Shown here: positions 4,248 to 28,773 of the stretch, in pieces
Layout of the letters: every line of letters starts with the position of its first letter
How positions within the stretch are numbered: position 1 is the first letter of the stretch
IMG/VR virus record: IMGVR_UViG_3300030708_001195
Coordinates: 1 to 28,773 of that record
From: a virus
Lineage: Duplodnaviria; Caudoviricetes
DNA: 28,773 nucleotides
Direction: 5' to 3' (one strand)
The notes under the pieces: generated by a model
The model's database searches: none
The model's input: only the letters and a program-made list of their open reading frames with translations
What the model was told of the DNA's origin: nothing
Translations under genes and position numbers: made by a program

Positions 4248-5258
4248 ATGGCAGGATTTGGTAAGACAAAGGAAGCAAAGGCCGAGGCTAAGGAAGAAGA
4301 GAAGGCTGAGGTGCTGGAGGCAACTCCGGCGAACAAGCGCACGGATGACAACCCGTTCGCTGCACTTCGACGTGAACTTCAACTGATGGACCACAGCCCT
4401 CAGACACACATCTTCATGGGTATCGCTGGGCATGACAACACTGGTAAGACAGCAATCGTTACTGATGCGTTCAACAGATGGGTCAACGCTCCTGAACGCT
4501 CTGAGATAGAGCGGGATATGCAGTTGTGGATTCTTGACTTTGAAGGCGGAGGTGCGGCTAACAAGTCAGCATTCCATTCTGATGAAGACCGCATTCGTTG
4601 TTGGGAACCATGGGTTATGTCTCGTGGTGACCGCACTGCATACGACTATCCTGCTACTCACGACCGTGTGATGAGCATCGTTCAGTTCGCAGTAGACATT
4701 GCTCACAAGCAACGTTCCCCTGAGTATGATGGGCCTCGCCTATGGGGATTGCATGTAACTGGTGTTGACCTATGGGACAGCGTGTGTGTAAACTGTATGC
4801 GTATCGTTGACTTGAACATCGCCAAGGATGGTATTGAAGCAGCCGACTGGAACAAGAAGGTCGGTCATCAATGGGACTGGGCAATCCGTAAGACCCGATT
4901 CCATCAACTCACTGGGCTTTGCCGTGCACTTGTTAAAGCAGGTGTGCGAGTGTTTTGGGAGACGCATCTTCGTCTCACCAACTACTCATTCGGTAAGAAT
5001 GAAAACACTGACCCGAAGTGGCGACCTGACTGGGAGAAGGCGAGCAACAACTTCGTCTATCAGATTCTAATCTGTGAGCGTAAGGATACGCTTGATGACG
5101 AGACGGGCGATGTAGTCCGCTCAGAATACACAGTGACTTTCGACAAGAGCAAGACCAATGCTAAGTTGCAAGGTCAGAGAAGAACGACACTCATCACTGA
5201 GGCTGGTAAAGAGCCACAGTGGTTTGGCTTACCGGAGTTATACGACGGGACGCTATGA
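4248..5258 (+). CDS. P-loop NTPase of the RecA/RadA/Sak4-like (AAA_24-type) group, putative recombinase or annealase
   Basis: Walker A GHDNTGKT, followed by WILDFEGG and VFWETH as in phage Sak4/AAA_24 proteins. GAGGTG RBS upstream. Confidence 0.65.
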   Translation: MAGFGKTKEAKAEAKEEEKAEVLEATPANKRTDDNPFAALRRELQLMDHSPQTHIFMGIAGHDNTGKTAIVTDAFNRWVNAPERSEIERDMQLWILDFEGGGAANKSAFHSDEDRIRCWEPWVMSRGDRTAYDYPATHDRVMSIVQFAVDIAHKQRSPEYDGPRLWGLHVTGVDLWDSVCVNCMRIVDLNIAKDGIEAADWNKKVGHQWDWAIRKTRFHQLTGLCRALVKAGVRVFWETHLRLTNYSFGKNENTDPKWRPDWEKASNNFVYQILICERKDTLDDETGDVVRSEYTVTFDKSKTNAKLQGQRRTTLITEAGKEPQWFGLPELYDGTL

Positions 5259-5259
5259 G

Positions 5260-5375
5260 ATACACATGGGGGTTTAGCGGCACAATAAAAACGGGATACA
5301 GCGTTCATTTTTCTATTCCAGAATTAGTCGCAGAGGGGGTTCGTTTCCTCTCGTCCTGTTCCCCCGCCTGTGTAT
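5260..5375 (+). other. Structured intergenic element (candidate ncRNA, regulatory leader or origin)
   Basis: This is the largest non-coding gap in the replication arm. ATACACA(5260-5266)/TGTGTAT(5369-5375) and GGGGG(5268-5272)/CCCCC(5361-5365) can close a long stem around an inner hairpin AGAGGGGG-TTCG-TTTCCTCT (5332-5351). Confidence 0.4.
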
Positions 5376-5391
5376 ACGTTAAGGTGATAAT

Positions 5392-5613
5392 ATGAGTAAA
5401 TGGAAAATATGGAAACGGATTACTGAGGGACCGCCACGTCGCCTACCGATGGCACGCTTGTGTCAATGCGGTGGTATCAAGACACGGCAGACCACATTAC
5501 ACGAGTTCTTTGACTTGACATCAGACCGTCAGGCACGACTACCGGGCTATAAGCCTCCACAACAACGTGTGGGTATGCACAGCAGACCGAGAGATTACAG
5601 GGGGTCATTGTGA
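5392..5613 (+). CDS. Small basic protein with a canonical PIP box (QTTLHEFF)
   Basis: GGTGA RBS before ATG 5392. QTTLHEFF (5488-5511) matches Qxx[LIM]xx[FY][FY]. The stop overlaps the start of the clamp gene. Confidence 0.65.
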   Translation: MSKWKIWKRITEGPPRRLPMARLCQCGGIKTRQTTLHEFFDLTSDRQARLPGYKPPQQRVGMHSRPRDYRGSL

Positions 5614-6386
5614 TGGTTGAGGTCAACATCAAGACCAAGCAAGCACAAAGATTCCTTTCATCATTCGGAAGCAACGTGGATGACTTGAAGGTTACAATCA
5701 AGGATGGTGTTATGGAAGCAAGCATTGCTTTCCAAACCCACTTCTTCAAGAAGAAGCGAGCGATAGAGGACTTCACTGCTCTCAATCCCTCGCAGACAAA
5801 AGCAGACGGTGTGTTGAACATTAGTGAACTCACTAAGGTATGTCAGTTCATCAAGAGTTGTAAGACAGATACAATCAAACTCAAGCAAACTGGGTCGGGT
5901 AAGACGCTCTATGTTATCTCCGGCTCATCGAAGTTACAACTTCCTGTGAGTGCAACAATCATCAGTAGCAGTAAATCTCATCTCGTTGAGAAATTACTTA
6001 CTGCATCTGCTGAGGCGCAGTGGGAATCATTCAACAACAGTGAACTCACAACGAGTGGCTCTGTTACTATCTCTGATGTGCTATCTGTTACGAAGATGAA
6101 AGGTATACTGTCCGCTAATCCATCGTTCAAGGTCACTGGTAATGCTGGTGAGAAGGAGTTCGCTATCTCTGCTGGTAAGACACACGAGGCGCGACTGTTC
6201 ACCACCACTGAACTGGTTGACCCTATCGGTCCTAATGCAAGTGTGCAGTCACACTTCGGCCCGTGGCTTATGGAGTCACTGGGCTTACTGACAGGTGCGA
6301 CTGCCACTGTTCACATGGGTGAGACATCACCTATCATTTTCCGACAGAACGACGACCTTCTCTTAGTGGTAGACCAAAGGGTGTGA
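5610..6386 (+). CDS. pcn: PCNA-like DNA sliding clamp
   Basis: About 257 aa with two alpha/beta repeat halves and a PCNA-like C-terminus (FGPWLMESL...ATVHMGETSPIIFRQ..LLLVV). It lies directly upstream of PolB and near RFC. The sequence is divergent, so the call rests on pattern plus context. Confidence 0.65.
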   Translation: MMVEVNIKTKQAQRFLSSFGSNVDDLKVTIKDGVMEASIAFQTHFFKKKRAIEDFTALNPSQTKADGVLNISELTKVCQFIKSCKTDTIKLKQTGSGKTLYVISGSSKLQLPVSATIISSSKSHLVEKLLTASAEAQWESFNNSELTTSGSVTISDVLSVTKMKGILSANPSFKVTGNAGEKEFAISAGKTHEARLFTTTELVDPIGPNASVQSHFGPWLMESLGLLTGATATVHMGETSPIIFRQNDDLLLVVDQRV

Positions 6387-6390
6387 TTAC

Positions 6391-8757
6391 GTGATTGTGG
6401 ACTGGTTCTACCCTGAGTATTCAGATGACTTCGGGTCGCCGTCTCTGTATCTACGCACACGTGATGCTAATGGTGATGTGCATACTCGTATCATAGAGCC
6501 TGAGGATGATGATTACATTCGTCCCTTCTGCTGGATTCCTGTAGACACTGCCAACTGGCAACTCAATCGACTGACTTCTCGCCACCCATCTGCGCGTGTG
6601 CTTGAGAGTGTTCGGTCGGTTGGTATTGATGGAAGAGAACTGATGAAGTTAGAGGTAGACAAGCCCAATGAACTGTGGGAAATCAAGGAGATGATGCCCA
6701 CATACGAGGCTGACCTCAACTACAAAGAGCAGATTCTACTCCAACTATATCCTGAGAAGATACCTGAGTTCCATCCTCGTGTATGGTTCTTCGACCTTGA
6801 GTGGCAACCTAAGGAGGACTTCACGACAGTCATGGCTGTAGTGGATAGCCACGCCGAGCATCCTATTGTATTTGCATGGAAGCCTGAGATACATACGATG
6901 CAAGTCAACTGGATTGACCGCGAAGGTGGGTATCTACTGCACGAGTTCGGTAGTGAGGAAGCGATGCATGAAGCATTCATTCAACACATGGATGTATGCG
7001 ACCCTGACATCCTCGTCGCTCACGCTATCATGTGGGCTGACCTACCTCACCTAATGCGACGACTGGAAGACCCGCATCGTTTGTCTCCTCTGAATCAAGT
7101 CATTAAGCCGTTCAAGGACGGTGGATACAAAGAGACACAGCAACCCATCAAGGGTCGCCTTTGCTGGGACTCATCGTCTCGTTGGCAGACGGGTAGTGGG
7201 TTTGAGACACTATGGCAGAAGTCAGGGCGTGGGCAACTACCCAACCGGAAGTTGAATACTATCGCTGGTCTGATGGGTCTTGGCTCTAAGTTGACTGATG
7301 AGATTGAAGGTATGACTGTCCATAATGGATGGGAGGATTACTATCCCTTCTTCGTGGATTACTGTCTACGAGATACAACTTTGTTATCTGATATCGCTGA
7401 GCGACTAAACGCGATTGAGTTCTTCGTTGCTATGCAACAACTGTGTGGTGTATCATGGGAGAGCACACACAAGGTTACACGATACTTCCGTGGACTTGTT
7501 GGTCGTCGCACTGAGATGAAGGCGAAGAGTGCAAGCAATGTGAAGCGCGACAAGTTGGTCGCTGCACACATCCCTGACCCAAAGACAGGTCGGCATGAGG
7601 GTGTTGGTTTGTTCGACTACGCCTCTCTATATCCTAACATTATCACAAGTGATAATCTCTGCTTTACTACTAAGCGCTCAGCCCCCGGCCCCGGTATCAA
7701 GACACTGGGTAATGGGACACACTGGGACCAAACCGAGAAGGGTTTGCTTCCCTCTATCGTAGATGAGATGCTTGAACTTAGAAAGGAATACAAGCAGAAG
7801 ATGAGAAACGCTGAGACATCGGAGGAGCGCCTCGGTTACGATATGCTACAGACAGCAGCAAAGGTTGCAGTCAACGCTCTCTATGGTATGTGTGGTATGA
7901 AGTCCGTCCAAGGTATGTGGGTGGAGAACGACATTGCCGCATCTATCACCTTCCGTGGGCGAGAGGCTATTCGTCACTTGCTTACAGAGAGCGAAGAGCA
8001 AGGTTATCACTCGCTATATGGTCATACTGACTCAGCCTTCATTCAAGTTCCGTTCGATGAAGCAGAAGCATTGGCCGAGCATCTCACTAAGACCGCTAAG
8101 GAGATGTTAGACCTTCCTTACATGGATGTTGAACTTGAGGCTTACTTTGATTATTGGACCACTGCTCCTGTGAAGAATCGTTACTTCGGTTACAAGGTGT
8201 GGCCTGAGAGCGACAAGGGGCAACTCAAAGTTACAGGCTATGCTATGAAAGCATCAAGCACAGCGAAGATAACAAAGGAAATACAAGAAACTGCTATGCG
8301 CCTTATCGGACATGGTGCTGAGGAAGAAGAAGTATCATCTGCTCTAAGAGAACTGGCTCTCAAGGTTAAGAGTGGCGAGATACCAATCAACGATGTAGTT
8401 CTCTCTACAAGGCTCACTAAGGAGCCTGATGCTTACGACTCACCCACACCCGGAGCAAAGGCAGCGATGTATTACAATGAGCACCTCGACGGTGAGAAGT
8501 GGCGTCAAGGCGACAGCGTCACATGGACATACATCTCTGACGCGGGTGCTTTACCTGATTACGTTACGATTAACGGTGAGCGTCAACGTGTGCAATTCAT
8601 GGCTTTCCGAGATATTGACGAACTAGGCGGAGCAATTATTGACTGGGAGAAGATTCTCGATGTGCTTGTGAAGTCCAAACTCAAGCGTCTCTACGAGAGC
8701 GTAGGTTGGGACATAGCAACAGCAGCGGGCGACGTGGTGCCACGGGTGTATTGGTGA
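6391..8757 (+). CDS. polB: Family B DNA polymerase with 3'-5' exonuclease domain
   Basis: ExoI FFDLEW, ExoIII YCLRDT, motif A DYASLYPNII, motif B KVAVNALYG, motif C variant YGHTDS, and KNRYFG. No intein is evident. Confidence 0.96.
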   Translation: MIVDWFYPEYSDDFGSPSLYLRTRDANGDVHTRIIEPEDDDYIRPFCWIPVDTANWQLNRLTSRHPSARVLESVRSVGIDGRELMKLEVDKPNELWEIKEMMPTYEADLNYKEQILLQLYPEKIPEFHPRVWFFDLEWQPKEDFTTVMAVVDSHAEHPIVFAWKPEIHTMQVNWIDREGGYLLHEFGSEEAMHEAFIQHMDVCDPDILVAHAIMWADLPHLMRRLEDPHRLSPLNQVIKPFKDGGYKETQQPIKGRLCWDSSSRWQTGSGFETLWQKSGRGQLPNRKLNTIAGLMGLGSKLTDEIEGMTVHNGWEDYYPFFVDYCLRDTTLLSDIAERLNAIEFFVAMQQLCGVSWESTHKVTRYFRGLVGRRTEMKAKSASNVKRDKLVAAHIPDPKTGRHEGVGLFDYASLYPNIITSDNLCFTTKRSAPGPGIKTLGNGTHWDQTEKGLLPSIVDEMLELRKEYKQKMRNAETSEERLGYDMLQTAAKVAVNALYGMCGMKSVQGMWVENDIAASITFRGREAIRHLLTESEEQGYHSLYGHTDSAFIQVPFDEAEALAEHLTKTAKEMLDLPYMDVELEAYFDYWTTAPVKNRYFGYKVWPESDKGQLKVTGYAMKASSTAKITKEIQETAMRLIGHGAEEEEVSSALRELALKVKSGEIPINDVVLSTRLTKEPDAYDSPTPGAKAAMYYNEHLDGEKWRQGDSVTWTYISDAGALPDYVTINGERQRVQFMAFRDIDELGGAIIDWEKILDVLVKSKLKRLYESVGWDIATAAGDVVPRVYW

Positions 8758-9288: not shown

Positions 9289-10277
9289 GATGGAATCCTA
9301 ATCCTGACGGTGGAAACATCGACCGTGGTGACGCAGAGTATCCTTACAAAGAGATGCTTGAGCACCACAAGAAGAGCACTTACGCTTGGCAACCCGGTGA
9401 TACAGACAAAGTCCTTCGTGTGACTAAATCAGCACTTGGAACCTTTGACTGGTGCCCTCAGCAATACTTCTTACAGAAGGTGCTTAAGTTACCACAAGGC
9501 CCTGCGACAGAGGACCAGATTCGTGGTTCTAATGTCCATGATGCAGTAGAGTATTGGTGGAACGCGATGCACGATGTAGTGCATGATGTATACGAGTTGT
9601 TTGAGAGCGGTGATGTAGAGAAAGCACTGTCTTTGTGCATAGACACTTTACCGCAGCCACCTGAACCATACATCTACGGAGAAGTAGAACAACTTCACTT
9701 GTATGTGCTATGGCAGTTCCAACGACTTTGTAACACAGACAAGGACGACATACACAACTGGTTCCCAATCGGTAACGAAGCATTGGTTCATGGTGTCCGC
9801 ACTGTCACTGCTTCTGATGGAACAGAAGTAGAGATTCACATGAACGGTTTCATTGACCGTATCTTTCTTGACGACGACAAGATGGGGATTGTATTGATGG
9901 AATTGAAGACAGGTAAGTTCTCTAAGAACAAGCCATCACAGATGCGAGCCGAGATGCAATTCTACCGAATGCTTCTTGAGCATAGCCCCCATGAAGAGTT
10001 CCTACCCGTAGTGGCTTGGGGATGGCAATTCCCCGGTGGTGATAGAAATGGAGGAACAGGACCAGAATGGGATTACGAAAGTGTCAGTGGACCCGGAGGA
10101 CGTTACGCACCGCGCACAGTGGAGAAGCGTCTCAAGCGGTTGGTGGATGCTCACTTGGCCCAAGATTTCCCACCAATTAAGGTTGACAACTGGAACGATT
10201 GGAAGTGCTCATACTGCGACTACATGGAGTTCTGCCCAGCATGGGGAGGAGAGGTGAAGATAGATGAAGAAGAATGA
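9285..10277 (+). CDS. Stand-alone Cas4-like / RecB-family PD-(D/E)XK exonuclease with Fe-S cysteines
   Basis: N-terminal WCPQQY, GSNVH, GFIDRI, ELKTGK, MQFY and C-terminal CSYCDYMEFC give the 1+3 cysteine arrangement of Cas4/AddB nucleases. Confidence 0.85.
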   Translation: MRWNPNPDGGNIDRGDAEYPYKEMLEHHKKSTYAWQPGDTDKVLRVTKSALGTFDWCPQQYFLQKVLKLPQGPATEDQIRGSNVHDAVEYWWNAMHDVVHDVYELFESGDVEKALSLCIDTLPQPPEPYIYGEVEQLHLYVLWQFQRLCNTDKDDIHNWFPIGNEALVHGVRTVTASDGTEVEIHMNGFIDRIFLDDDKMGIVLMELKTGKFSKNKPSQMRAEMQFYRMLLEHSPHEEFLPVVAWGWQFPGGDRNGGTGPEWDYESVSGPGGRYAPRTVEKRLKRLVDAHLAQDFPPIKVDNWNDWKCSYCDYMEFCPAWGGEVKIDEEE

Positions 10278-10545
10278 CATTCATTATGCAAAGGCACTTA
10301 TTAAAGCGGCACTGGAAGAAATGTTTCCTGATGCCTCGTTTGAGGTCGCAGTGTCTCTTATCGAAGGGGACTCACACGTGCGCTCATTCAAACAAACTAC
10401 TCTTGGTGACTTTGCTAAGATTGGATTAGAGCCGACCGAAGAACCCAGCAGACATTTCTTCGTAACACTACATCCTCAATCACTTCTTTCATACAAAGCA
10501 AAGGGGCTTTTGAAATCGTTAAAGGATGACATAAACAAGTATTGA
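10264..10545 (+). CDS. Hypothetical protein with a PIP-box-like motif (KQTTLGDF)
   Basis: GGTGA RBS, overlap with the upstream gene, and QTTLGDFA at 10393-10416. Confidence 0.6.
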   Translation: MKKNDIHYAKALIKAALEEMFPDASFEVAVSLIEGDSHVRSFKQTTLGDFAKIGLEPTEEPSRHFFVTLHPQSLLSYKAKGLLKSLKDDINKY

Positions 10546-18029: not shown

Positions 18030-18376
18030 TACTTCACCTCGATTAATAGTTGGATTCTAATTTCATTCTTCGTAGTTTTACTCAAAGGAGATATTGTGTG
18101 CCTCGCCACTGGTGTAAATGCTGTGCCGGTGCCTCGAAACTGCACATAGACCTCCTTCAATGTATCATCAAAGGACTCGGTCGCAGGGATGAACCCTTCG
18201 ACTAAAATGGTGCTATCATCCACCACTCTTACAGTTGGATTGACTGTAATTGCAGGTCGTCCAGCAGCACCATCAGAACTCGTAGACGGGGTGCCATCGA
18301 AACCAATCACCATCTCGTTGATGTTGCTCACTAACGTGTCCAACAATGTTCTCTTTATGTGGTCACTTATTGGCAT
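18029..18376 (-). CDS. Putative tail/baseplate protein
   Basis: 115 aa. IGFDGTPSTSSD...TLKEVYV...RHTISPLSKT..EIRIQ resembles small tail-fibre-base domains. Overlapping start/stop on both sides. Confidence 0.5.
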   Translation of the reverse strand: MPISDHIKRTLLDTLVSNINEMVIGFDGTPSTSSDGAAGRPAITVNPTVRVVDDSTILVEGFIPATESFDDTLKEVYVQFRGTGTAFTPVARHTISPLSKTTKNEIRIQLLIEVK

Positions 18377-19803
18377 CAGTCATCACCTCTTATCATAACA
18401 CCAGTGCTCTTACTACCACCGACTGTCTCTTGGCTACTGGTTGCTCCGATGGTGCCTCTATTCATGGCCTTTCCTATGATAAAGCCGGTGCCGGAAGCAC
18501 CATGGTGCGTGATAGTAACTAACGGAGTGACCTTAATCTTGATGTCACCAAACAGTGATAGATTCTTCTCACTGATTTGTTCTACAATGTTAGGCTCAGA
18601 ACCAGTGTTCACAGCACCCTCTGCAATGCCTTGTAATACACCTTCGATACCAGTATCTACAGTTAAGAATACAAGGTCTGTAGCATCCTTTGCAAGATTG
18701 TGTCTAACTTCAGTTAGTATGCGCCTTACGCCTTCATACTCTATGATTTGACCCGGTCGTAAATCCCATGATTGTGGGTGACCGCTACTGCTTTTGTTTC
18801 CTGCAAGTAGATTGTTTGCTTTCAAAATATTACGCGCCACTCTTCGTGCTGACTCATTTGTTTTCACAGTCATGTCTGTAATCACTTGCGCCTCTTGTTG
18901 TGTATCAGGCGCCCTACCACTCTGCCTTTCAGCATCGCTAACCTCTGCGAAAGCGGACTCATTGAGTGATAGCGATATACCTTGAACTGCGATTGTGCTT
19001 GGAGCGTTCTCTACTGGATTGGTCTGCGAAGGCCCGACTCTTGAATTAGCATCAACAAATCTACCTGCCTCGCTAAAGTTGAATGGGACATATAGGATGT
19101 TACCAAATCGGTCGAAGTAAATGATATGATTATCATGACGACCAATAAAACGGAGAGCGGAAATTAGATTAGCGCTATTGAAATCAACAGCAGTAAACGT
19201 GGTGCTATGTTTTCTGCGGTCTGCTACTGAGCGAGTGGGGGACATAGGAAGAGCGATGTTCACAGATGTGAATGAATCAGCAACGTCCCTACCTAATCGT
19301 AGTGCCATGTCCGTAGTGCGGAAACCCACGTCAATGGGATATCCAATGTGAACAAGATTACTGTTGAAACCTATCTCTTGGAGTGTTCTTCCCTTGAGGT
19401 TTCGCACCGATAAAGTCGCACCCTGACTTCCAGTCAAGACGCTTCCTAACGATATGCGCTCAGTGTTCGTATCTATAGAATATAGCAGCGGCGGCTTATA
19501 TAAAGCGGCATCATTTTCCACAAATGACCCCATATAAACCAACGAAGATAGATGTTCATGCCCAGCGACTTGTCGATGAGTCAAACGCACTCCATCTTCT
19601 AACTCATTTACCTCGTATGCGCGTTCTGTGCCGATAGGATAATTAGCCTTCTTGCGCTGACGTAGCGTCACCTTTTGCTTGGAACTACCTTGTAGTGATA
19701 CCTCACCAAGATGTAGGGCGTTATCTACAAACTTGGGCTTACGCACGTGTTTCATGACGACATCACTGTCGCCAGTCAAGCGTTGCTGTGCGAGGTAAGG
19801 CAT
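18376..19803 (-). CDS. Putative tail-tip/baseplate hub-like protein
   Basis: IYFDRFGNILY and ARRVARNILK...WDLRPGQIIEY...ILTEVRH resemble phage hub/tail-tip proteins. Likely start is ATG 19803 (TGATG overlap). Confidence 0.55.
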   Translation of the reverse strand: MPYLAQQRLTGDSDVVMKHVRKPKFVDNALHLGEVSLQGSSKQKVTLRQRKKANYPIGTERAYEVNELEDGVRLTHRQVAGHEHLSSLVYMGSFVENDAALYKPPLLYSIDTNTERISLGSVLTGSQGATLSVRNLKGRTLQEIGFNSNLVHIGYPIDVGFRTTDMALRLGRDVADSFTSVNIALPMSPTRSVADRRKHSTTFTAVDFNSANLISALRFIGRHDNHIIYFDRFGNILYVPFNFSEAGRFVDANSRVGPSQTNPVENAPSTIAVQGISLSLNESAFAEVSDAERQSGRAPDTQQEAQVITDMTVKTNESARRVARNILKANNLLAGNKSSSGHPQSWDLRPGQIIEYEGVRRILTEVRHNLAKDATDLVFLTVDTGIEGVLQGIAEGAVNTGSEPNIVEQISEKNLSLFGDIKIKVTPLVTITHHGASGTGFIIGKAMNRGTIGATSSQETVGGSKSTGVMIRGDD

Positions 19804-21206
19804 CACATTCCCTCCTTAATTTGAGTCAAGAACTTAGGGTCAACATCGTCCATAAACCGATAGTCATCAGGGAATAACCGTTTTGTGTCCTCGCCAGTAT
19901 CATCACCATAACCTATGTATTCTTCGGGCATTCCTGCGCCTTCCCTAACACCAATTAATGCTGGGGCCGGAATTGGTCTATACGACCAGCCTTTTCTTTC
20001 TGCATACCTATGCGCACGCTCAGGTTTTGTGGTAACAAACGCACCTCTGTAAGTTGGGTCATAATTTTCCATAAACTTATCATAAGAACCATCCTCCATG
20101 GCTTGAACATATTCTTCTATGTTTTTGTATGGGTTTCTATTAGCCCTTAATCCCTGCCTCATAATTTGTTGAACATTTGTTTCAGGAGTCCCATGATAAT
20201 ACTTCACTGGTCCATAGGAAGAAGGTAAGTCGGGATGAAACTCACCAAGTTCTGTTTGGCGTTTGAGCAACGCAATGTTAGCACGTGGGATTGCACTGGG
20301 TCGGACATTCGACATGGTGCCACCGAGCACACCGAATGGCTCTTGGTGTTGTATAGGAGAAGGGAGGCCACCGGCTCTCACGCCCACAACTCCAACCTGA
20401 GAAGAAGGTAGACCAAGTGACTGCGCACGCTCTTGAGCAAACGCAAGTGCTCTCTCTCGGTCAGGTGTAGTGTATGTGATATCTTGCCCACGTAGTTGCT
20501 CAGGCACATACTTCTTGGAACGCTTACGACTGGACCGTGCTTTGATGCCCTGCTCGCTCACAGCAGGTAGATTCATCGTGCCGTGATACTCGGTCACAGG
20601 GCCGAGGGATGAAGGGAAGTCCTCGTGGAACTCACCAAGTTCTGTTTGGCGTTCTGCTTTAGTAAATCCTGTTTCTTCACTAAACGGTATATTTTGGAAA
20701 GTAGGCATTGGTGTAGTTTCAACATAACTAAGTTGCCCTGACTCATCAAATACAGGTTTAGTATCTTCCAACACGTGTTTTGATGATGCAACCAATTCTT
20801 CTTTTGTCCCATCAGGTCTTGTGACTATTTTTCTATCAGGGAACATATTTTCATCAGCATGACTAGGATGAATCGCAGGGTGATATAATCTAGCATCAGG
20901 ATTTAATTGAGCACGTCCCTCGCCCGTTTTAGGATTGTAATGTATTAGAGGCCCCTCCCCTCTATCAAGATACATTCTATCATAGAAATCTTGGTCATCA
21001 AAATAATCAGTATCATGACCCAAAAAGTGTGCTATAGATTCACCCGGATGAGTTTCACGCTTTAGCAACCGCCAAGCGAGGTCCATTGGACTCTTCTTTA
21101 CCTTTTCAGGTAGATTCTTCTTCTTGGTCTTCTTCTCAAACCGCTTTGCCATCTTTGGGTCAGTCGCATACATAAAGCGACGTTGAGCCTGAGATTCAAA
21201 CGGCAT
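19803..21206 (-). CDS. Modular protein: basic leader, PMDLAWRLLK motif, unknown domain, and two tandem ADP-ribosyltransferase-like domains each preceded by RQTELGEFH
   Basis: Domain A reads YHGTMNLPAVSEQGI...ITYTTPDRERALAFA...VVGVR...AIPRANI. Domain B reads YHGTPETNVQQIMRQGL...AFVTTKPERAHRYA...LIGVR...VDPKFL. Both show the HGT / (Y,F)xT / (Y,F)A pattern of HYE-clade and Tpt1/KptA-like ART folds. Confidence 0.7.
   Translation of the reverse strand: MPFESQAQRRFMYATDPKMAKRFEKKTKKKNLPEKVKKSPMDLAWRLLKRETHPGESIAHFLGHDTDYFDDQDFYDRMYLDRGEGPLIHYNPKTGEGRAQLNPDARLYHPAIHPSHADENMFPDRKIVTRPDGTKEELVASSKHVLEDTKPVFDESGQLSYVETTPMPTFQNIPFSEETGFTKAERQTELGEFHEDFPSSLGPVTEYHGTMNLPAVSEQGIKARSSRKRSKKYVPEQLRGQDITYTTPDRERALAFAQERAQSLGLPSSQVGVVGVRAGGLPSPIQHQEPFGVLGGTMSNVRPSAIPRANIALLKRQTELGEFHPDLPSSYGPVKYYHGTPETNVQQIMRQGLRANRNPYKNIEEYVQAMEDGSYDKFMENYDPTYRGAFVTTKPERAHRYAERKGWSYRPIPAPALIGVREGAGMPEEYIGYGDDTGEDTKRLFPDDYRFMDDVDPKFLTQIKEGM
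20239..20653. repeat. Exact 25-bp direct repeat pair AACTCACCAAGTTCTGTTTGGCGTT (20239-20263 and 20629-20653)
   Basis: Read directly from the sequence. The copies are 390 bp (130 codons) apart and encode RQTELGEF on the minus strand. Confidence 0.95.
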
Positions 21207-21261
21207 TACTCATCGCTCCATTTCTTTGCATCTTTAGCAACCGCCAAGCGAGGTTCATTGG
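21060..21261. repeat. 30-bp direct repeat pair CTTTAGCAACCGCCAAGCGAGGT(C/T)CATTGG (21060-21089 and 21232-21261)
   Basis: 29/30 identical. It encodes PM(D/N)LAWRLLK in two different ORFs. Confidence 0.95.
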
Positions 21262-21674
21262 TTCGCTTGCATTTTTCACATAAGAACCACCTACGCTTAT
21301 TTTTTGTGGCTCAAAGGATTCAAAATCTTCTGCGAATGTATAAGCATCTTTCCATCCGGGAGTAAGAGGATTAGTTCTATGTGGTTTCAAACGCCAAGCA
21401 TTCGCTCCGGCGGCGACACTTTGCCATGGAGTCACTTCGAGTGAATCTCTCCGATTTCGATTTTCCCTCCGCTCTTCCTCCCGTTGCTGTAAAAATTCTC
21501 TATGCTGAGCGTTCAACTGTTCCCTTTGCTTTTCCCTTGGCCTTTCCCTTGCCCATTCCTCTTGAGCAAGCATTTTACGGCCCTCAGCGATACCGCTTAA
21601 ATACGCTTGACTTTTTGGTATTTTTTCCACGCCCACCTTTTCAAACGGCATTACTCATCACCCCATTTCTTTGC
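21195..21674. repeat. 35-bp direct repeat pair TTCAAACGGCATTACTCATC(G/A)C(T/C)CCATTTCTTTGC (21195-21229 and 21640-21674)
   Basis: 33/35 identical. On the minus strand it carries an RBS plus TAATG plus MPFE, the translation start of both the 151-aa and the 467-aa ORF. Confidence 0.95.
21196..21651 (-). CDS. Hypothetical protein with a charged coiled coil and a C-terminal EPMNLAWRLLK motif
   Basis: 151 aa, starting MPFE like the downstream gene, with an E/R/Q-rich helix. It is bounded by the 35-bp repeats. Confidence 0.65.
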   Translation of the reverse strand: MPFEKVGVEKIPKSQAYLSGIAEGRKMLAQEEWARERPREKQREQLNAQHREFLQQREEERRENRNRRDSLEVTPWQSVAAGANAWRLKPHRTNPLTPGWKDAYTFAEDFESFEPQKISVGGSYVKNASEPMNLAWRLLKMQRNGAMSNAV

Positions 21675-21767
21675 CTCTATCTCATTGAAACCTATATGCA
21701 TGCCGATTGGCACACCGATAAAGAAACCACCCAATACACAAATAAAGAATAATTTGAGCAAGGTCAA
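21651..21767 (-). CDS. 38-aa single-pass membrane microprotein (not in the ORF track)
   Basis: A TTG start overlaps the giant gene's TGA and follows GGTGAT. The product is MTLLKLFFICVLGGFFIGVPIGMHIGFNEIEAKKWGDE, and its TAA overlaps ATG 21651. Confidence 0.55.
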   Translation of the reverse strand: MTLLKLFFICVLGGFFIGVPIGMHIGFNEIEAKKWGDE

Positions 21768-24700
21768 GAAGCATCACCGCTGTGGTCTGATGTCGTGAAG
21801 GTAACGTCTTCTTTATGCCCCTTGCTATGTAATGATTGACTGAAGCGCGGTTTAACGGTGAAGTCCTTGTCTACACCAGTGTTACGAGGCGCGTCACTAC
21901 GGAAGTGTTGTAGTGTATTCTCACTGATAACTAAGCGAGTAACTGTGCCTTTCAAGGTGGTCTTATCGAAAGTTGTTGCTTCAGTGCCGGGTAGTTTCGG
22001 CCCTTTCGCGACCGGCACAGTATCACTACTTGTCTCCATTAGGTATACTGGTTGGTATGGTGCGTTTGTGGCTGGGTTGCTACTACCACCAATGAAGAAG
22101 CCATCAGCAGCACGACCATTAGTTGTCTCATAAGTGAACAAACCATACTTACCACCAGCAGTTGCTGAGAAGAAAGTGCCACCATCTTGTGGGCTACTGC
22201 TATGCAGATTGTGTTCAGGCCGGAACACTTCGATGTGTTGATTGTCAAGAAGACGCACAGGTCGCACCATAAACTTCACACTTGCATCCTTGTAGTTCGT
22301 CTGTGCACTTGTGCTGTCGTATGTTGTGGTTTGATACGGATTGCTTGTTTTCTGCCCACCAGCCAAACTAGCGCGACCCCAACCAGTATCATCGAATGGA
22401 TTGACGAATGAGCGCGACTCAAGGATGTATGACCCGCCCATCGGTTTAATGTTTGAAGTGTGACTAAATCGCATTACACCACCATGTGGTTGTGCAGCGA
22501 AAGATAGGCTTGTGAGGTCATAATCACCAAGTGTCTGCGACCCTGCTTGCATACCACCGTGTAACACAACACGTTGCCCTACACCACGGTCAGTGTGAAG
22601 GCTGTGCGCTTCGGTATTGATAGCAACCATATCACGATTGATTTCACCCTTTAGAGATTCAAGGGACTGAGCGTCAATTCCAATACGTGGGCTGGTCCTA
22701 GATATAGCATCCTTGTGGACGCTGGTCCCACTGATTTCTTCAACACGGTCACTGACCACAGCCTCAGGCTTGAGTAGTCCGTCTTCATCAATCTCAAGCC
22801 TTGCACTGATACCACGTGTTACTTCGTCAGATTGTAAGACATCGTTGCGTGGTCTAACATATCCTTGACCGAACGCTGGCTCTGCTGTGTGGTGTGATAG
22901 AACAACTCCCGACCCTTCATACACAGCATCGAGTTCAACCAATAGGTCTTCGTTAAACTGAGTTGGATAGCGAACACCACGACCACCACCCATGTCGCCA
23001 ACACGCATGGCGTTTGTAGGTGCGAATACATCAACAAGAGAGTTGGAGTCGTTGTTGTTTGTGCTGTTCTTTGTTCCACCAAATCGTGGCACAGACGCAG
23101 TGGTAGCGGAGAGTAGGTTGCCACTGCTATCTAATACGCCCTTAACATTGAAGATAGGTTTACCATTGTTCCAAATCCTTGCATGTGGTGTGCGATTGTT
23201 TGTGCGGTCATACTCGTATGCATCACCAGCATCCCATGCTGGGCGGATACCGAAACCACGCACTGGTGCGCGACGCACGTCTTCGCCACGTGTGTTGCCC
23301 CACCAATCAACAAGGTAGTATCCTACAGCAGCATCAATTGTAGTGATACCTAATGCTTCGCTGTCACCCCACCAATCACGAGGCACCGCTTCAGCACCAC
23401 TGAAGTCACTCTTTGTTAGATTGGCTAAGTCCTCGGTGATAGTGGTGTTGCCAGCAAGCCCTGTCTTTGCTTGTGTGAGCGTTATGGCTTGGTTACCGTT
23501 TGCCTCCGTAGGAACTGCTGAGACAGTAATCTTACCATTGTGACCATTTGCGTGCTCTATCGCAGCCTTGAGTTGAACTAAGAATGCGTTTTGTGTAGAC
23601 GCAGAGCCAGTTAGATTGATGGCTACAGCGATACCACCAGCAAGCGCAGAACCAGCAGTGCTGGCACCTGTATCAGATGAAGCAGTGAGGACATCACCAG
23701 TCGCAACAGTCGTTGCATTATCATCTACCAAGACGTATGTTCTTGATGTTCCATCAGTTGATGTTAGAACAATAGTTTGCTTCTCTGTCATACCACTTGC
23801 AGCATCACCGTCCGTGACTGTTAGTGTAGCAGTGGCTGCACTGTTGGTGTCTCTTAGTGTTCTCACAGGGCATCCGAAGCCTCTCGTCATACGACGACCG
23901 TCACTGTATCTTACCTGCCACTCAGGTTTGTCCACACCAAGCATAGCAGATGCGTTTGTCTGTCGCTCCATTATACCGACATAGGTGACGGGCAGAGTGC
24001 TATTTGCAAGACCAGCGCCTCCGGCATAATTCCAACTTTGTGTCTCATATTCAGTTAGTGGACCTGCTTTGTATCCCACTGTGAAGTTACTTGCACTTGC
24101 GTGTGTAGCGGCCTCTTGGTAGGCTCGCATTCCGTAGTGCCCCCATTGCGGTCGGTTCCATGGTTGGCGAAGGCCAAAGCGATAACCAAACGGATAACGA
24201 CGCGTTGTGATTGATGAAGCAGCAGCGGTTGTGATTCCGCTACTTACAGCGTAAGAACCATCATCGTCAGCATCTGTCCAGTATGTGGCACCGGCAGCAG
24301 TGTAAGCACGTGGGACATGCCATGCAGCAGACCAAGCGGCATAACCATCAAGGCGACTATTGAGTGGGCCACCACGACTACCACACGGCCAATAGTGACT
24401 GAGCATGACTGTGGCGCTACCCTGTGCTTCGTATCCCGACATAGCGTGAATATTTGTTGCAGTATCTACAGAGCCATCTGCGTTCTTGTAAATGAAATCA
24501 CCAACACCCGGATTGTTAATCAAATTAGTTGTGAAACCTGCTGTAGTAGTTCCTGAAAAGTGTATGGCGCCTGATGTTTTACCAATAAACAAACCGTCTG
24601 ACGTAAACAACAAAGTTCCCGCTGACATTTCTGACGCGTTGTTACCAGAGAATGTTAAGAATGTAGACCCAACGCTTGCGACAGCGAGTGAAATCTTTTC

Positions 24701-27700
24701 CGGTGGTTTTGGTGTATTCATATCAAGATTAAACGGACCGTGACTCACAGCGTAGTTTGCGCCATGATAGTGAACTGTCTCAAAGTGTTCAGGCATACTG
24801 TTGTATGCAGCCTTGTTGACTGCTCGGTCACTGGTGAGATTACCCCAAGTTCTTGAACCATCAGAGTAGAAGGTGTGTGGGCGACCAAGATTTGGATGCC
24901 ACATACAAAGGAAAGCATCAGGTGTATGAAGGCTATTCGTATCACGAGTCCCTGCGAGCATTTGAGGGAGAGTTCTTGTTAACACACTTGACTTACTATC
25001 GTTGAATAATGAAGACGCAGCGGCGGTTGAGTATTCTCTTGTAAGACGGAGAATTGCTCCATCTTGCGGCATAGTTGTGGTTGTCGGGACAATGATGAGG
25101 TTGGTTTTGTTCATCGTTGTAGCATTGTTTGTTGTGCCCGAGCGAACAGTATAATCGAACTCAGCAGTGGTTCCGTCGCTTTTTGTATATTGCAACTTCT
25201 GCCCATAATAAGGAACTTCAGGGAGATGCGATGCATCATCTACCACAATACCGTAAAACGTCAAGGTGCCGTTTGTTACTGCACCGCCAGTGGTTGATGC
25301 GCTCAATTCAAACTCAGTATCACTTGTTACAGATGCAACAAACGCACCTGCTGGTATACCAGTGCCAGTCACCAACATACCTGCTTTGATTTGACCATCA
25401 TCATCATCGTGTGTGATAGTAGGGTCATTGTTGTAATCACATGTAGCATTCGTGAAGGATGTTGACTGAACAGTCATCACTGGAGACAGGCTTGCGTTAG
25501 CCAAGACCTTAGAATACATATCAGGATAGATACTTGGGTAACCAGCAAGAGTCAACTGACAGCCAATAGAGCCGAAACTAGCGCGACAGAACTCGTAGTA
25601 ATTATCTATACGCGCAAGAGAAAGATGTCTAAAACCAGTAGCGGTGCTATCATCGGGTCCAACCTTGTGCATGATAGACCACCAAGGAATGTGTAGTGTT
25701 CTTCCGGGTGTTGAGTCACTAAACATACCCACGTGATATGCATGTGTAGAGCGAGTAAACGCTGGACTCTGATTACCCTGCACGCCAAGAGCGTTATAGG
25801 TCAACAACGGTGGTATGTTGGTGAACTGTCCACCGTGGTCAGGGTCATGGTCAAGAATAACCTCGTTGATGAACACCTCACAACCACGCACATCCGCAAG
25901 TGTAGCCTCTGCGAGAATTAACGTCACACCACCAATAGCAGAGCCTCGCTCGCTATCATACTTGATACCAACAACAAGATTGACTTGTTGACTGGTTAAC
26001 TCTACAGCAGAGCCGTTTGGTAGAGAAGTGGCTGAACTATGATTTGCATGGAAACCAGCAATCTGTTGCTTACGTGCATTTGGTTGTATAACAATCTGAT
26101 ATGCACCAACTTCAGCAGGGTCAGGGAAGTGCCTGTCAAGAGTGTAGTTACCCGCTGCTTCGAGAATGATAGAGTGACCACCGGCCTTGTTCATATCACC
26201 AGCAGTGCCCTTAGATGCAAGGATTCCATACCCGTCATACTTGACTTTAGTTTCAAACATCAGCGTAAAAGCACCACCATGAATATCACTTGGACCTGAT
26301 GGTAACGCTGTTAGAGAACCAATGCGGAGTGGTGGGTTAAGTGGATGCATCTTATCTGTGATTGTTGAACTGAGTGATGTATCAACTAAACCAATATTGT
26401 CTTTGAGTGTGATGTAATCTTCATCAACACGAGATACTCTATTCTCACTACGAGAACGTGAGTAAAGACCTTGATAGGCAGGATGCGCCCAATGACCCGG
26501 TAGCATGGGCATGGTTGCGTTAACGAAGTGATGACCCATACGTGGGTATGGCATGGGCGTCAATTGCGGCTTACTGTATCGCGTGTGTAAGAGAGTGTCT
26601 TGGTCACCATCAAAGTAGAGTGTATGCGCCATATCTGGACTATTACCACTAACTTCAGCGTGGTCACGAAGACGACGAGCAGCAAAGAAGCGAGTGCTTC
26701 CCGCTGGCACATAGTAGGATGGTGAGATATTGATTGTTGATGTTGCAGGTGGATTATCGACTAAGAACTGGTCAAAGTCAATATCACCTATTACACCTGT
26801 AAAAGTAGCACCGCTAATACCCGTATACGATACAACCACTGCGTCACTTGCAGTCGCGAGGCGCAGGAAGCGACGATTATCACTTCGCTCTTTTGATGCA
26901 AAGTCAGCATCAAAAACAGCAGATGTAACAGTTGCTGAAGCAGTTAACGTAGTGCCGCTGAAACTACTCACCGTCAAGGATTGGTTAACAACACCGCTGG
27001 CGTGATTGTAAGTTACAGGATAGCGTTCTGTGTGACTATGTCCCATCTTTGTAATATGGAAGAACAACGTCCTATCATGTAGTTCGTAAGATGATTGTAT
27101 TGGGTTGTCCTGTGTTGCGCCTGTCCAACCATCTCGCGTGCTATCAGGGAAAGATTCAGTTTGTGAGATATGTTCCCAACCAACTTCACCCATTGTAGGA
27201 CCAAAGCGCGGCCCTTTGATTACGTTGTCAAACAGGTGACCAACATGAGATGCACCAAGGTCTGGATGTAACATACCACCGTCACCAATGTTCTCATTCT
27301 GATAGGCTTGCAATCTATCATATCCTGAACGCACGATGATGTTACCCGGTATCGCGTCAGGATTGGGAAGGCGAACTTTCAGGTTTGGCTCAACACCACT
27401 ATTCGCATTGGCTGGTTGTAACCCACTAGCAAGTCGTTCACCTGCTGTTTGGAATGCACGAATGATTACACCAAATGGTGAACCACCCTCAATCTTGTGT
27501 GTCTGCCCTGTGTCATCAACAACTTCTATTGCTTCAAATTGCAACTCCTCGTTTGGTATCTCCAAAATATTACGCAACTCATGCGGGTGTCGTGCTGCTA
27601 GTTGAGGATGTGCAAGTTCTTGTGCCTGTAGAATAGGCATCATAGCGCTGTTTGTTGTTTCAAACGAGAATCGCACGTTACCATACAACTTCTCTCCCAT

Positions 27701-28773
27701 AGTGTATTCTGCGTTACTCTTGACGCGGTTAATCCATGGGATAGCACCAAGACCACGTGCATTGACTGTAGGAAGGGAAAGGCTCCCTCCATCCATACGT
27801 TTCCAAACAGCGTGCTCGATGTTGAAGTTCTTCGCAGGAGAGCGTTTGTAAACATCATATCCATTTACGTCACCAACCCAAAATGATTTTCCAGTAGCGT
27901 CATTTTTGAAAGAGGCAGACGGGCGATTGGTGGGATTAGCATAAAAGTCAGCACCAACGTTACGTTGCCCAGTGGCAGTGGCTGAGAACTCAGTCCCTAT
28001 GCTGTGGTCAAGGTCAAAGAACAGGTCGCCGGTTTCAGCCCTACAAGGTGTAGCGTTCTCAAGGCTGGTGTCAGCAGAAATTGCATCATGAAGGAAGAAA
28101 GTGTCATCAAATGGGGCGGCGTCTAATCCATTAGTAGCAGTGTAATCAGCAACACTCGGTGTGCTGGTGCTACTTACAATCAGCGCCTCTACATTTGGAC
28201 CAGCGTTTGCAGTGCAGGTAAAACGGTCTTGTCCGTGTATGCGTTCATCCCAGCGTGTAGTCCCAGCCTTTGCCTTGTTTGTTTGCTGTTCAGCAAGAAG
28301 CCAGTCACCAGTGCAAGTAATCCCATCACGGTCATACTTAGCGATAAGTGGTAACTCCGACTCATACGCTACAACAAGGAATGCGCGAGCATAAACACCC
28401 TGAGGGTGACGAAGTTCAGATGCAATATTTTCTTCACTGTAGTAAGTCGGTGTGCTATTAAAATCAGATGTGTCCGCATAACCGGGAACATAAGCATTGT
28501 AAGCAGACGTAGTGCGCGCTTCGTTTGTCATATTACCAAGTGTCCCATAAGGTGCGAATGTTCCACCAGCACCGGGGAAGTTGATGTAGGATTCATCAGG
28601 ACGTATGGATTCACCACTGTTCGGCATCGGTGCTGTATGTGGTAGATGAGATAGAGTTGTCATGCAACTGTTCGCATTCCCGTATGGTGAGAAACCAAGT
28701 GAGGGATGCCATGCACCAAGCCCAGCGGCATAGGATGAGCCAACTAATAGGCTGTTGAGATACGAGTATCGTT
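21764..28773 (-). CDS. Giant (>2300 aa) putative virion structural/tail protein, 5'-truncated by the window edge
   Basis: The frame of ORF 21764..28663 remains open to the window end (RYSYLNSLLVGSSYAAGLGAWHPSLGFSPYGNANSC-MTT...). It is G/S/T/A-rich with embedded beta-rich modules and lies upstream of hub-like genes. Confidence 0.7.
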   Translation of the reverse strand, partial: RYSYLNSLLVGSSYAAGLGAWHPSLGFSPYGNANSCMTTLSHLPHTAPMPNSGESIRPDESYINFPGAGGTFAPYGTLGNMTNEARTTSAYNAYVPGYADTSDFNSTPTYYSEENIASELRHPQGVYARAFLVVAYESELPLIAKYDRDGITCTGDWLLAEQQTNKAKAGTTRWDERIHGQDRFTCTANAGPNVEALIVSSTSTPSVADYTATNGLDAAPFDDTFFLHDAISADTSLENATPCRAETGDLFFDLDHSIGTEFSATATGQRNVGADFYANPTNRPSASFKNDATGKSFWVGDVNGYDVYKRSPAKNFNIEHAVWKRMDGGSLSLPTVNARGLGAIPWINRVKSNAEYTMGEKLYGNVRFSFETTNSAMMPILQAQELAHPQLAARHPHELRNILEIPNEELQFEAIEVVDDTGQTHKIEGGSPFGVIIRAFQTAGERLASGLQPANANSGVEPNLKVRLPNPDAIPGNIIVRSGYDRLQAYQNENIGDGGMLHPDLGASHVGHLFDNVIKGPRFGPTMGEVGWEHISQTESFPDSTRDGWTGATQDNPIQSSYELHDRTLFFHITKMGHSHTERYPVTYNHASGVVNQSLTVSSFSGTTLTASATVTSAVFDADFASKERSDNRRFLRLATASDAVVVSYTGISGATFTGVIGDIDFDQFLVDNPPATSTINISPSYYVPAGSTRFFAARRLRDHAEVSGNSPDMAHTLYFDGDQDTLLHTRYSKPQLTPMPYPRMGHHFVNATMPMLPGHWAHPAYQGLYSRSRSENRVSRVDEDYITLKDNIGLVDTSLSSTITDKMHPLNPPLRIGSLTALPSGPSDIHGGAFTLMFETKVKYDGYGILASKGTAGDMNKAGGHSIILEAAGNYTLDRHFPDPAEVGAYQIVIQPNARKQQIAGFHANHSSATSLPNGSAVELTSQQVNLVVGIKYDSERGSAIGGVTLILAEATLADVRGCEVFINEVILDHDPDHGGQFTNIPPLLTYNALGVQGNQSPAFTRSTHAYHVGMFSDSTPGRTLHIPWWSIMHKVGPDDSTATGFRHLSLARIDNYYEFCRASFGSIGCQLTLAGYPSIYPDMYSKVLANASLSPVMTVQSTSFTNATCDYNNDPTITHDDDDGQIKAGMLVTGTGIPAGAFVASVTSDTEFELSASTTGGAVTNGTLTFYGIVVDDASHLPEVPYYGQKLQYTKSDGTTAEFDYTVRSGTTNNATTMNKTNLIIVPTTTTMPQDGAILRLTREYSTAAASSLFNDSKSSVLTRTLPQMLAGTRDTNSLHTPDAFLCMWHPNLGRPHTFYSDGSRTWGNLTSDRAVNKAAYNSMPEHFETVHYHGANYAVSHGPFNLDMNTPKPPEKISLAVASVGSTFLTFSGNNASEMSAGTLLFTSDGLFIGKTSGAIHFSGTTTAGFTTNLINNPGVGDFIYKNADGSVDTATNIHAMSGYEAQGSATVMLSHYWPCGSRGGPLNSRLDGYAAWSAAWHVPRAYTAAGATYWTDADDDGSYAVSSGITTAAASSITTRRYPFGYRFGLRQPWNRPQWGHYGMRAYQEAATHASASNFTVGYKAGPLTEYETQSWNYAGGAGLANSTLPVTYVGIMERQTNASAMLGVDKPEWQVRYSDGRRMTRGFGCPVRTLRDTNSAATATLTVTDGDAASGMTEKQTIVLTSTDGTSRTYVLVDDNATTVATGDVLTASSDTGASTAGSALAGGIAVAINLTGSASTQNAFLVQLKAAIEHANGHNGKITVSAVPTEANGNQAITLTQAKTGLAGNTTITEDLANLTKSDFSGAEAVPRDWWGDSEALGITTIDAAVGYYLVDWWGNTRGEDVRRAPVRGFGIRPAWDAGDAYEYDRTNNRTPHARIWNNGKPIFNVKGVLDSSGNLLSATTASVPRFGGTKNSTNNNDSNSLVDVFAPTNAMRVGDMGGGRGVRYPTQFNEDLLVELDAVYEGSGVVLSHHTAEPAFGQGYVRPRNDVLQSDEVTRGISARLEIDEDGLLKPEAVVSDRVEEISGTSVHKDAISRTSPRIGIDAQSLESLKGEINRDMVAINTEAHSLHTDRGVGQRVVLHGGMQAGSQTLGDYDLTSLSFAAQPHGGVMRFSHTSNIKPMGGSYILESRSFVNPFDDTGWGRASLAGGQKTSNPYQTTTYDSTSAQTNYKDASVKFMVRPVRLLDNQHIEVFRPEHNLHSSSPQDGGTFFSATAGGKYGLFTYETTNGRAADGFFIGGSSNPATNAPYQPVYLMETSSDTVPVAKGPKLPGTEATTFDKTTLKGTVTRLVISENTLQHFRSDAPRNTGVDKDFTVKPRFSQSLHSKGHKEDVTFTTSDHSGDAS

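Follow-up and report, generated by a model that had tools for sequence, protein, structure and literature searches.

A hypervariable array of in-frame protein modules bordered by short coding repeats in a likely magrovirus

Overview of the locus

We analyzed a 28,773-nucleotide stretch of virus DNA (Caudoviricetes; IMG/VR record IMGVR_UViG_3300030708_001195; hereafter, the window), a 28.8-kb fragment estimated to be 26% complete. On its minus strand, between a giant gene and a conserved core gene, small protein modules alternate with three pairs of short repeats (R1, R2, and R3). Two of the modules are putative ADP-ribosyltransferase (ART) domains. Compared with its relatives, this locus is by all appearances a hypervariable cassette array: across related viruses the site ranges from empty to ~2.9 kb, and modules recombine at the R2-type tag and R3 as well as at bare hydrophobic-hydrophobic-Lys junctions and stop/start overlaps. 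The array is real, and there is good support for the swapping of its modules; capsid loading, protease cutting, clamp binding, and the enzymatic substrate we infer or predict, and the same holds for the labels "effector" and "virion payload". The explanation of the whole that we favor, and consider reasonably probable, is a magrovirus cassette array in which the R2 tag loads the modules and R3 targets them to the sliding clamp. The features of the locus are the following (aa, amino acids; ORF, open reading frame; PIP, PCNA-interacting protein motif):

21764–28773 (-): giant gene, its 5' end lying beyond the window; flanks the insertion site on the upstream side
21651–21767 (-): ORF W, a hydrophobic peptide of 38 codons; its TTG start overlaps the giant-gene stop; a diverged allele occurs in L088–L090
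21640–21674 (-): R1, made of the end of W, a ribosome-binding site (RBS), and an MPFE start
21196–21651 (-): ORF X, 151 aa; orphan module (21262–21651), tag R2, then 11 out-of-frame residues through R1'
21232–21261 (-): R2, long tag PMNLAWRLLK
21195–21229 (-): R1', duplicate of R1; supplies the polyprotein start
19803–21206 (-): polyprotein Y-tag-Z-ART_A-ART_B, 467 aa; its stop and the following gene's start overlap
21090–21206 (-): module Y, a basic peptide of 39 aa; first module in 11 of 22 strings
21060–21089 (-): R2', long tag PMDLAWRLLK; the breakpoint relative to L015 falls within it
20652–21059 (-): module Z, 136 aa; recurrent linker tail at 20652–20687
20629–20653 (-): R3, PIP-like box RQTELGEF; N-terminus of ART_A
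20262–20651 (-): ART_A, predicted ADP-ribosyltransferase fold; C-terminal end LLK
20239–20263 (-): R3', second PIP-like box; N-terminus of ART_B
19803–20261 (-): ART_B, homolog of ART_A; fold assigned by homology
18376–19806 (-): conserved core gene, 476 aa; downstream flank

The first-pass annotation, made from the bare sequence, had proposed the order R1-X-R2-(AT)-R1'-Y-R2'-Z-R3-ART_A-R3'-ART_B, and this order was borne out, including the AT between R2 and R1'. The copies are identical at 33/35 positions for R1 and R1' (21640–21674 vs. 21195–21229), 29/30 for R2 and R2' (21232–21261 vs. 21060–21089), and 25/25 for R3 and R3' (20629–20653 vs. 20239–20263). Their exact cores span 20–25 nucleotides (nt), whereas exact direct repeats in 30 triplet shuffles of the window reached 13–15 nt at most. 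At R3, DNA similarity extends over 76 nt at 76%. The compositional shift that had been noted by eye was also found by measurement, with a GC content of 55.0% in ART_A, 38.5% in Z, and 42.8% in ART_B (48%, 21%, and 35% at third codon positions). The two ART domains, described as strongly diverged, share 39% identity over 113 aa (E 3e-16). ORF W, which lies between the giant gene and X and whose 3' end forms the 5' part of R1, had been missed.

Relatives differ in the number and identity of modules

Among 62 related loci, some of which are near-copies, 53 had both flanking genes. The insertion site was empty in 44 of the 53, where the giant gene abuts the core gene, and filled with 0.4–2.9 kb in the remaining 9. 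On a tree of the flanking gene with 40 distinct rows, the filled state takes 4 changes at best, and at least 3 gains or losses are forced. ART_A recurred at 98%–100% identity in 17 of 54 longer matches, one of which is the window's own cluster. When these 17 matches and five locus proteins were split at the junction motifs, 21 module strings were obtained among 22 proteins, two of which are fragments. The expectation of the first-pass annotation that relatives vary in payload number and identity was thus confirmed. Partner modules in relatives include GNAT-like and HD domains, mostly under the Pfam cut-offs, with one HD match (P0010) that passes. A single polypeptide can therefore hold two or more effector-type domains: the ART fold occurs twice in the window, and ART is joined to unrelated GNAT-like and HD domains in relatives. 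By sequence comparison, the exchange also extends into the flanking gene.

Two of the repeat-to-repeat forms that had been predicted exist. A joint that skips 445 nt, the R1–R1' spacing, was seen in three runs from three studies (X12, X13, X15; 3/8 runs), and module X was absent there. The R3–R3' deletion is represented by P0193, which equals the window ORF minus 130 aa (the R3–R3' spacing) and is identical at 184/185 and 146/152 positions on the two sides. No R2-to-R2' fusion of X to Z was seen in the 8 runs. Relative L015 carries two additional modules; both blocks that it has in common with the window end inside R2', and the differing block is bounded by tags. In P0003, Z is missing and the tag is fused directly to R3. 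Other magroviruses carry Z as an insertion in a conserved gene near the terminase. In L022, it lies inside this gene, between two exact 21-nt copies of the gene's own tag variant, and the linker tail known from the window stands before the second copy. The G004 ortholog has a single tag and lacks Z, and in P0197 and P0198, Z lies between two resident-type tags.

We considered whether these arrangements could be assembly chimeras formed at the repeats. All evidence comes from assemblies, and P0193 is known from one member sequence on one contig, but the exact repeats are only 20–25 nt long, contigs of independent studies bridge the repeats with at least 31 letters on each side, and several strings recur across many member sequences. 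Contigs of runs X3, X4, and X5 (three studies, one of which may be the window's own source sample) cover 21194–21721, and one contig of run X5 covers 19622–21093. The repeats, bridged by contigs of three studies, are thus not an artefact, and chimeric arrangements are exceedingly improbable. L019 encodes the same proteins as the locus.

Neutral or selfish accretion would instead make the short repeats a mutational hot spot in a tolerant site, with most modules useless to the virus. Such a process would fit a site that is so often empty, the out-of-frame filler with which ORF X ends after its tag, and the lack of a known family for X and Z. However, every observed string is in frame, the ART family comprises at least 150 clusters at 50% identity in which the PIP-like leader is kept, and the HD and GNAT modules keep recognizable family motifs. 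We regard accretion of this kind as very unlikely.

Further variation was observed at other sites. The conserved gene upstream of the terminase holds zero, one, or two modules at its own tag (L022:995–2653; P0195–P0198; G004 4516–5706). L018:5084–5608 (-) is a second insertion site, with a short-tag gene between the last gene of the structural block and the thermosome gene; the window has none there. L030:773–2911 encodes a tagged polyprotein (P0052) in which an ART module follows a nucleotidyltransferase of the CCA/poly(A)-polymerase type. Finally, L088 shares 92-nt blocks of 98% identity with L018 and L023 where the downstream core gene begins, the alleles being diverged elsewhere.

Exchange takes place at module borders

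The ends of blocks shared between relatives cluster at the repeats: 30 of 53 were no more than 12 nt away from a tag, R3, or R1 (null mean 10.8, maximum 21 among 2000). After collapsing repeated events and applying a stricter flank filter, chosen after seeing the first data, 30 distinct breakpoints remained, of which 12 coincided with R1–R3 on both sides (null mean 0.3, maximum 3 among 3000). Most of the others fell at shorter junctions, namely bare hydrophobic-hydrophobic-Lys joints or stop/start overlaps, and adding these two classes accounts for 29/30 breakpoints (null 0.9). Exchange therefore appears to occur at module borders in general, with R1–R3 as the longest of several handles. The notion that the repeats are the recombination handles thus stands in part, as breakpoints do cluster there, but only a minority of the distinct ones lie there on both sides. 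R2 and R3 do serve as DNA handles, but only in second place to their role as peptides, and they are not specific to this locus: both are family-wide functional peptides, a tag and a PIP-like box. For R1, a clean deletion form exists, but the repeat itself seems to have arisen as a side effect when X was inserted.

The exchange is likely to proceed by short-homology recombination. We think it quite probable that crossovers or template switches between co-infecting genomes use 6–30 nt of homology, with no site-specific recombinase involved. R1 is best read as a local duplication around module X. Given this duplicate, the near-identity of all X copies, and the tag duplication in L022, the form without X is read as likely ancestral. 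Insertion may thus duplicate resident sequence, as with R1 around X and the 21-nt tag around Z in L022, and allow clean excision; two template switches at short homologies, or later gene conversion, would both yield such a target duplication.

The repeats could also be DNA sites of a dedicated site-specific system of the integron or shufflon type that happen to be read in frame. Strong codon fixation in R3 and in the long tag, where even a rare codon is fixed, and the exact 21-nt duplication around Z in L022 would agree with this. However, no match to tyrosine or serine recombinases (PF00589 and PF00239) was found in the window fragment (0/1) or in the five complete related genomes (0/5), in line with the earlier statement that no dedicated integrase is visible. 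Folding of the tag showed no hairpin in excess of synonymous recodings (5/63 at p ≤ 0.05), which ruled out a hairpin or att-like structure. There is no invariant crossover point, as several junction classes occur, and an integron/shufflon-type site with a hairpin and a fixed crossover was rejected on these two grounds. Moreover, short tags keep residues, not codons. A dedicated site-specific system is accordingly improbable in our view. Concerted evolution of tags within a genome was not significant either (152 of 1000 permutations); the equal likeness of tags within and between contigs points to a tag pool common to the genomes.

An ORF at 4248–5258 (+) encodes a conserved P-loop-like protein beside a 472-aa gene and is possibly a magrovirus RadA-like ATPase, which would make it a candidate for short-homology recombination. 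As a Sak4/RadA-like recombinase, it had no match in Pfam, NCBIfam, PHROGs, or PDB sequences. Here and below, published work is compared as far as the accessible parts of the cited papers go; a RadA-like ATPase is listed for magroviruses by Philosof et al. (PMC5434244).

R2 is a family-wide tag ending in Leu-Leu-Lys

R2 reads as a family-wide tag. Related loci contain 102 distinct copies of its motif, on many unrelated proteins of the late strand. In the complete genome G001, all 14 motif matches (13 of them tag-like) were on the structural strand, at N-termini or between modules. In 27 short N-terminal tags, the residues are kept and the codons are mixed, which argues for selection on the peptide. 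The 63 long tags share codons as well, with Arg encoded by CGG in 36/58 (6% background) and GCT used in 54/56 (39% background), which argues for spread by DNA copying; because tag copies are related, p-values overstate this codon effect. An internal Shine-Dalgarno sequence before the tag Met was not supported, as GGCGAA occurs in 20/33 "GE" cases and GGTGA in only 7.

In G001 and G004, the same LLK recurs at the end of the capsid-protein leader and immediately before the HK97-type (S78) protease domain. This protease belongs to the HK97 family (PF04586/TIGR01543), and HK97 gp4 protease cleaves after Lys. By analogy with the capsid targeting sequence (CTS) of T4, the tag is likely a capsid-loading and protease-cut signal. 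It would direct the polyprotein into the prohead, where the HK97-type protease would cut after Lys and free single modules; we rate this sequence of steps as fairly probable.

The same shuffling could also serve late cytoplasmic proteins that act, for example, in replication shut-off or superinfection exclusion, with the tag as a docking or turnover signal for a partner such as the viral thermosome or a scaffold. A PIP-tethered enzyme would work equally well when newly made, and tagged genes in G001 are also clustered away from the head genes. On the other hand, the restriction of motif matches in G001 to the structural strand and the placement of LLK in the capsid-protein leader and before the protease domain speak for the virion, and T4 internal proteins give a precedent (PMC9026906). 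A purely cytoplasmic role is thus rather unlikely.

R3 resembles a clamp-binding motif

R3 fits the pattern Q-x-x-hydrophobic-x-x-aromatic in a flexible terminus, with the second aromatic usually His; in the structural model of ART_A, residues 1–7 have a predicted local distance difference test (pLDDT) score below 50. R3 is the leader of a large ART family, for which a profile search gave 152 clusters at 50% identity. In 122 clusters with the leader and enough upstream sequence, it follows hydrophobic-hydrophobic-Lys in 104 and a tag in 89. Synonymous identity at R3 is 61% over the first 8 codons, compared with 33%–37% further in. Host-type (Poseidoniales) PolB and FEN1 end in closely similar boxes, whereas the viral PolB does not. 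Of 13,113 window 8-mers scored for likeness to these PolB/FEN1 tails, both R3 copies are among the six highest. A PIP-like motif follows the tag in 11/131 cases, 7 of them on non-ART modules, compared with 0–1 in four control windows. On a leader-versus-body tree, occurrences of the exact leader are dispersed (13 changes in 23 rows), but with 120 columns and long branches this tree carries little weight.

A modeled complex of Poseidoniales PCNA with ART_A residues 1–32 scored 0.66, a mark reached by 116/157 solved and 2/215 mismatched pairs; the best control scored 0.02. Run agreement was at least 19%, and partner pLDDT was at least 37. In the model, Leu5 lies against clamp residues 43–46 and 237–241, which we take to be the PIP pocket. 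R3 is therefore predicted, with good probability, to be a PIP-like box that binds host PCNA.

Three neighboring observations concern clamps. A 258-aa gene directly before PolB (5610–6386, +) probably encodes the viral sliding clamp. The viral PolB (6391–8757, +) ends in a conserved non-PIP tail that also occurs in G001, which suggests that the viral clamp reads another motif than the host clamp. A 93-aa ORF of the replication block (10264–10545, +) holds the best PIP-like 8-mer of the window and is a candidate adaptor to the host clamp.

ART modules

The model of ART_A (pLDDT 86.6) had its best fold match in KptA (Z 8.8, barely higher than the usual background; rmsd 2.6 with 79 aligned; chain residues 92–176 of 179). 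Other ART folds came next, and nearly all of the top 34 VIA rows were ART-fold chains. ART_A shows the split beta-sheet of this fold with a His in strand 1, and it shares a YHGT start with KptA. On the strength of this model, ART_A is an ADP-ribosyltransferase fold that is nearest to the NAD-binding lobe of KptA/Tpt1. [quoted passage not shown] ART_B presumably has the same fold through its homology to ART_A. Neither ART module alone matched the Pfam PTS_2-RNA family.

Some archaeal Tpt1 enzymes ADP-ribosylate, or cap, DNA 5'-phosphate ends (PMC6182162). In ART_A, a module of 126–130 aa, the PIP-like leader takes the place of the N-terminal half present in KptA/Tpt1 (PMC6182162), and a clamp tether could stand in for this missing substrate-binding half. 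Once freed, ART_A and ART_B would present the PIP box at their N-termini and attach to host PCNA; at the replication fork, they would then ADP-ribosylate a target that is most likely DNA, at its ends or nicks. DNA in this form is a tentative candidate for the ART substrate.

Weighing the proposed mechanism

Several points weigh against our explanation as a whole. Packaging, cleavage, binding, and catalysis rest on inference or prediction, and the host is uncultured. All run data are assembled contigs, not raw reads, and the 445-nt joint was absent from four other runs. As to the exchange, 18/30 breakpoints did not lie at R1–R3 on both sides, the two wider junction classes were defined after the fact, family searches identified no recombinase, and tags were not more alike within a contig than between contigs (77.1 vs. 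75.9%, 152 of 1000 permutations). What precedes ART_A in the window is FTKAE instead of a tag. The PCNA–ART_A complex passed in only 2/3 runs, and PIP–PCNA is a textbook pair, so the model may pass by likeness to solved pairs. Finally, the margin of the ART_A fold score is narrow, Foldseek gave the same rank order at E 0.015 with no match at E ≤ 0.001, and the model of ART_B itself was poor (pLDDT 42).

A bolder version, possible but doubtful, would be an integrase-free "protein integron". One coding tag would then be capsid address, protease site, and handle at once, and each insertion would make a new handle, because the template switching that brings in a module would duplicate the resident tag. 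The virion-cut products would include a large family (~150 clusters) of single-lobe KptA-like transferases tipped with a PIP box, which would travel on host PCNA and cap nicks or ends of DNA.

Magroviruses infect some of the most abundant archaea of the surface ocean, and their accessory genes are nearly unannotated. The locus offers naturally occurring states before and after module exchange at coding repeats, and the junction motifs give a simple rule for dividing many magrovirus ORFans into modules. If the PIP-ART reading is true, host take-over or counter-defence by these viruses would have a named target, the host sliding clamp, and a named chemistry. The tag could also serve as a cargo-loading signal for HK97-type heads.

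Comparison with known systems

By analogy, the locus works like a blend of phage polyvalent proteins, T4 internal proteins with their CTS, and PeSL (Promoter early Stem-Loop) shuffling. Polyvalent proteins (Iyer et al. 2017, PMC5512222; PMC9503650) are likewise mosaic multidomain proteins encoded near virion genes. They combine ART, GNAT, and peptidase-like modules, are proposed to be packaged and injected, and accreted from solo domains (PMC5512222). In contrast to them, no MuF, portal, or other anchor domain and no ART-PolyVal match was detected here; MuF, ART-PolyVal, and like signature domains had no Pfam match at E ≤ 0.1 or 0.5. The modules described here are also small and separated by one recurring 10-residue tag, and the host is likely archaeal. 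The word "linker" is absent from the main text of PMC5512222.

T4 internal proteins IPI–III and Alt with their CTS (PMC9026906, PMC12373910) also carry a short common propeptide on unrelated, non-essential, variable proteins. It is removed by the prohead protease, and the T4 cargo includes an ADP-ribosyltransferase (PMC9026906, PMC12373910). A short common peptide at the N-terminus of unrelated variable proteins was found here as well; a T4-type gp21 protease was not. Whereas the T4 CTS is N-terminal and the protease is gp21, our tag is also internal, ends in Lys, and goes with an S78/HK97-type protease.

In PeSL shuffling of the T4-type phages RB49 and phi1 (PMC2839356), short functional repeats likewise swap ORFan cassettes with no dedicated integrase, and indels bounded by short repeats that leave one chimeric copy occur both there and here. 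PeSLs, however, are non-coding promoter/RBS elements between genes, and their shuffling involves mini-circles, whereas the present handles are mostly coding and join modules in frame. R1 does contain an RBS; a scan for bacterial-type promoters, which does not cover archaeal ones, showed no excess.

The accessible text of the papers on magrovirus group A (PMC5434244, PMC11706807) makes no mention of the locus, the tag, or the ART modules, and "ADP" and "hypervariable" do not occur in that of PMC11706807. ART is listed in two haloviruses (PMC8651126). In the literature searched, we found no published description of the magrovirus tag, the swapping, or the PIP leader, nor of an archaeal-virus attack on host replication by a PIP-tipped ART.

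Virus, host, and genomic setting

In family searches, the replication block of the window was found to contain PolB (one unsplit ORF of 788 aa), a primase-like gene, a clamp loader, an ERCC4 nuclease, and a TCP-1/cpn60 chaperonin, which was judged from its sequence to be of the thermosome type rather than a GroEL. The cassette locus sits in the opposite-strand block, facing these genes. Such a layout matches that of magroviruses, in which PolB, primase, clamp loader, and thermosome lie in a replication block opposite the structural block (PMC5434244, PMC11706807). The thermosome is assigned to magrovirus groups A and D by Philosof et al. (PMC5434244). The virus is thus likely a magrovirus of group A, and its host would belong to the Poseidoniales, marine archaea. 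A search with the viral thermosome gave no host genome. A copy of it, 50% identical, was found in L191 (NZQM01000180.1), a genome labeled Parvibaculum, which is possibly a mis-binned magrovirus contig. Rfam gave 0 matches.

In G004, the strand and block corresponding to those of the locus hold the capsid, protease, portal, and terminase genes; the immediate flanks of the locus are without a family match. The first-pass annotation had called the two flanking genes giant structural and hub-like, and neither the giant gene (Pfam, PHROG) nor the 476-aa core gene gave a family match. Module X has no known family and no longer relatives, its copies being found only at 98%–100% identity. Module Z also had no known family in family searches, and module Y had a weak match to phrog_1375 (E 0.015). 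Inside the giant gene (23400–23800, -), ~140 residues between the motifs GCPVR and RDWWGD are missing in several relatives (e.g., L007), so that the giant gene appears to have an insertion of its own.

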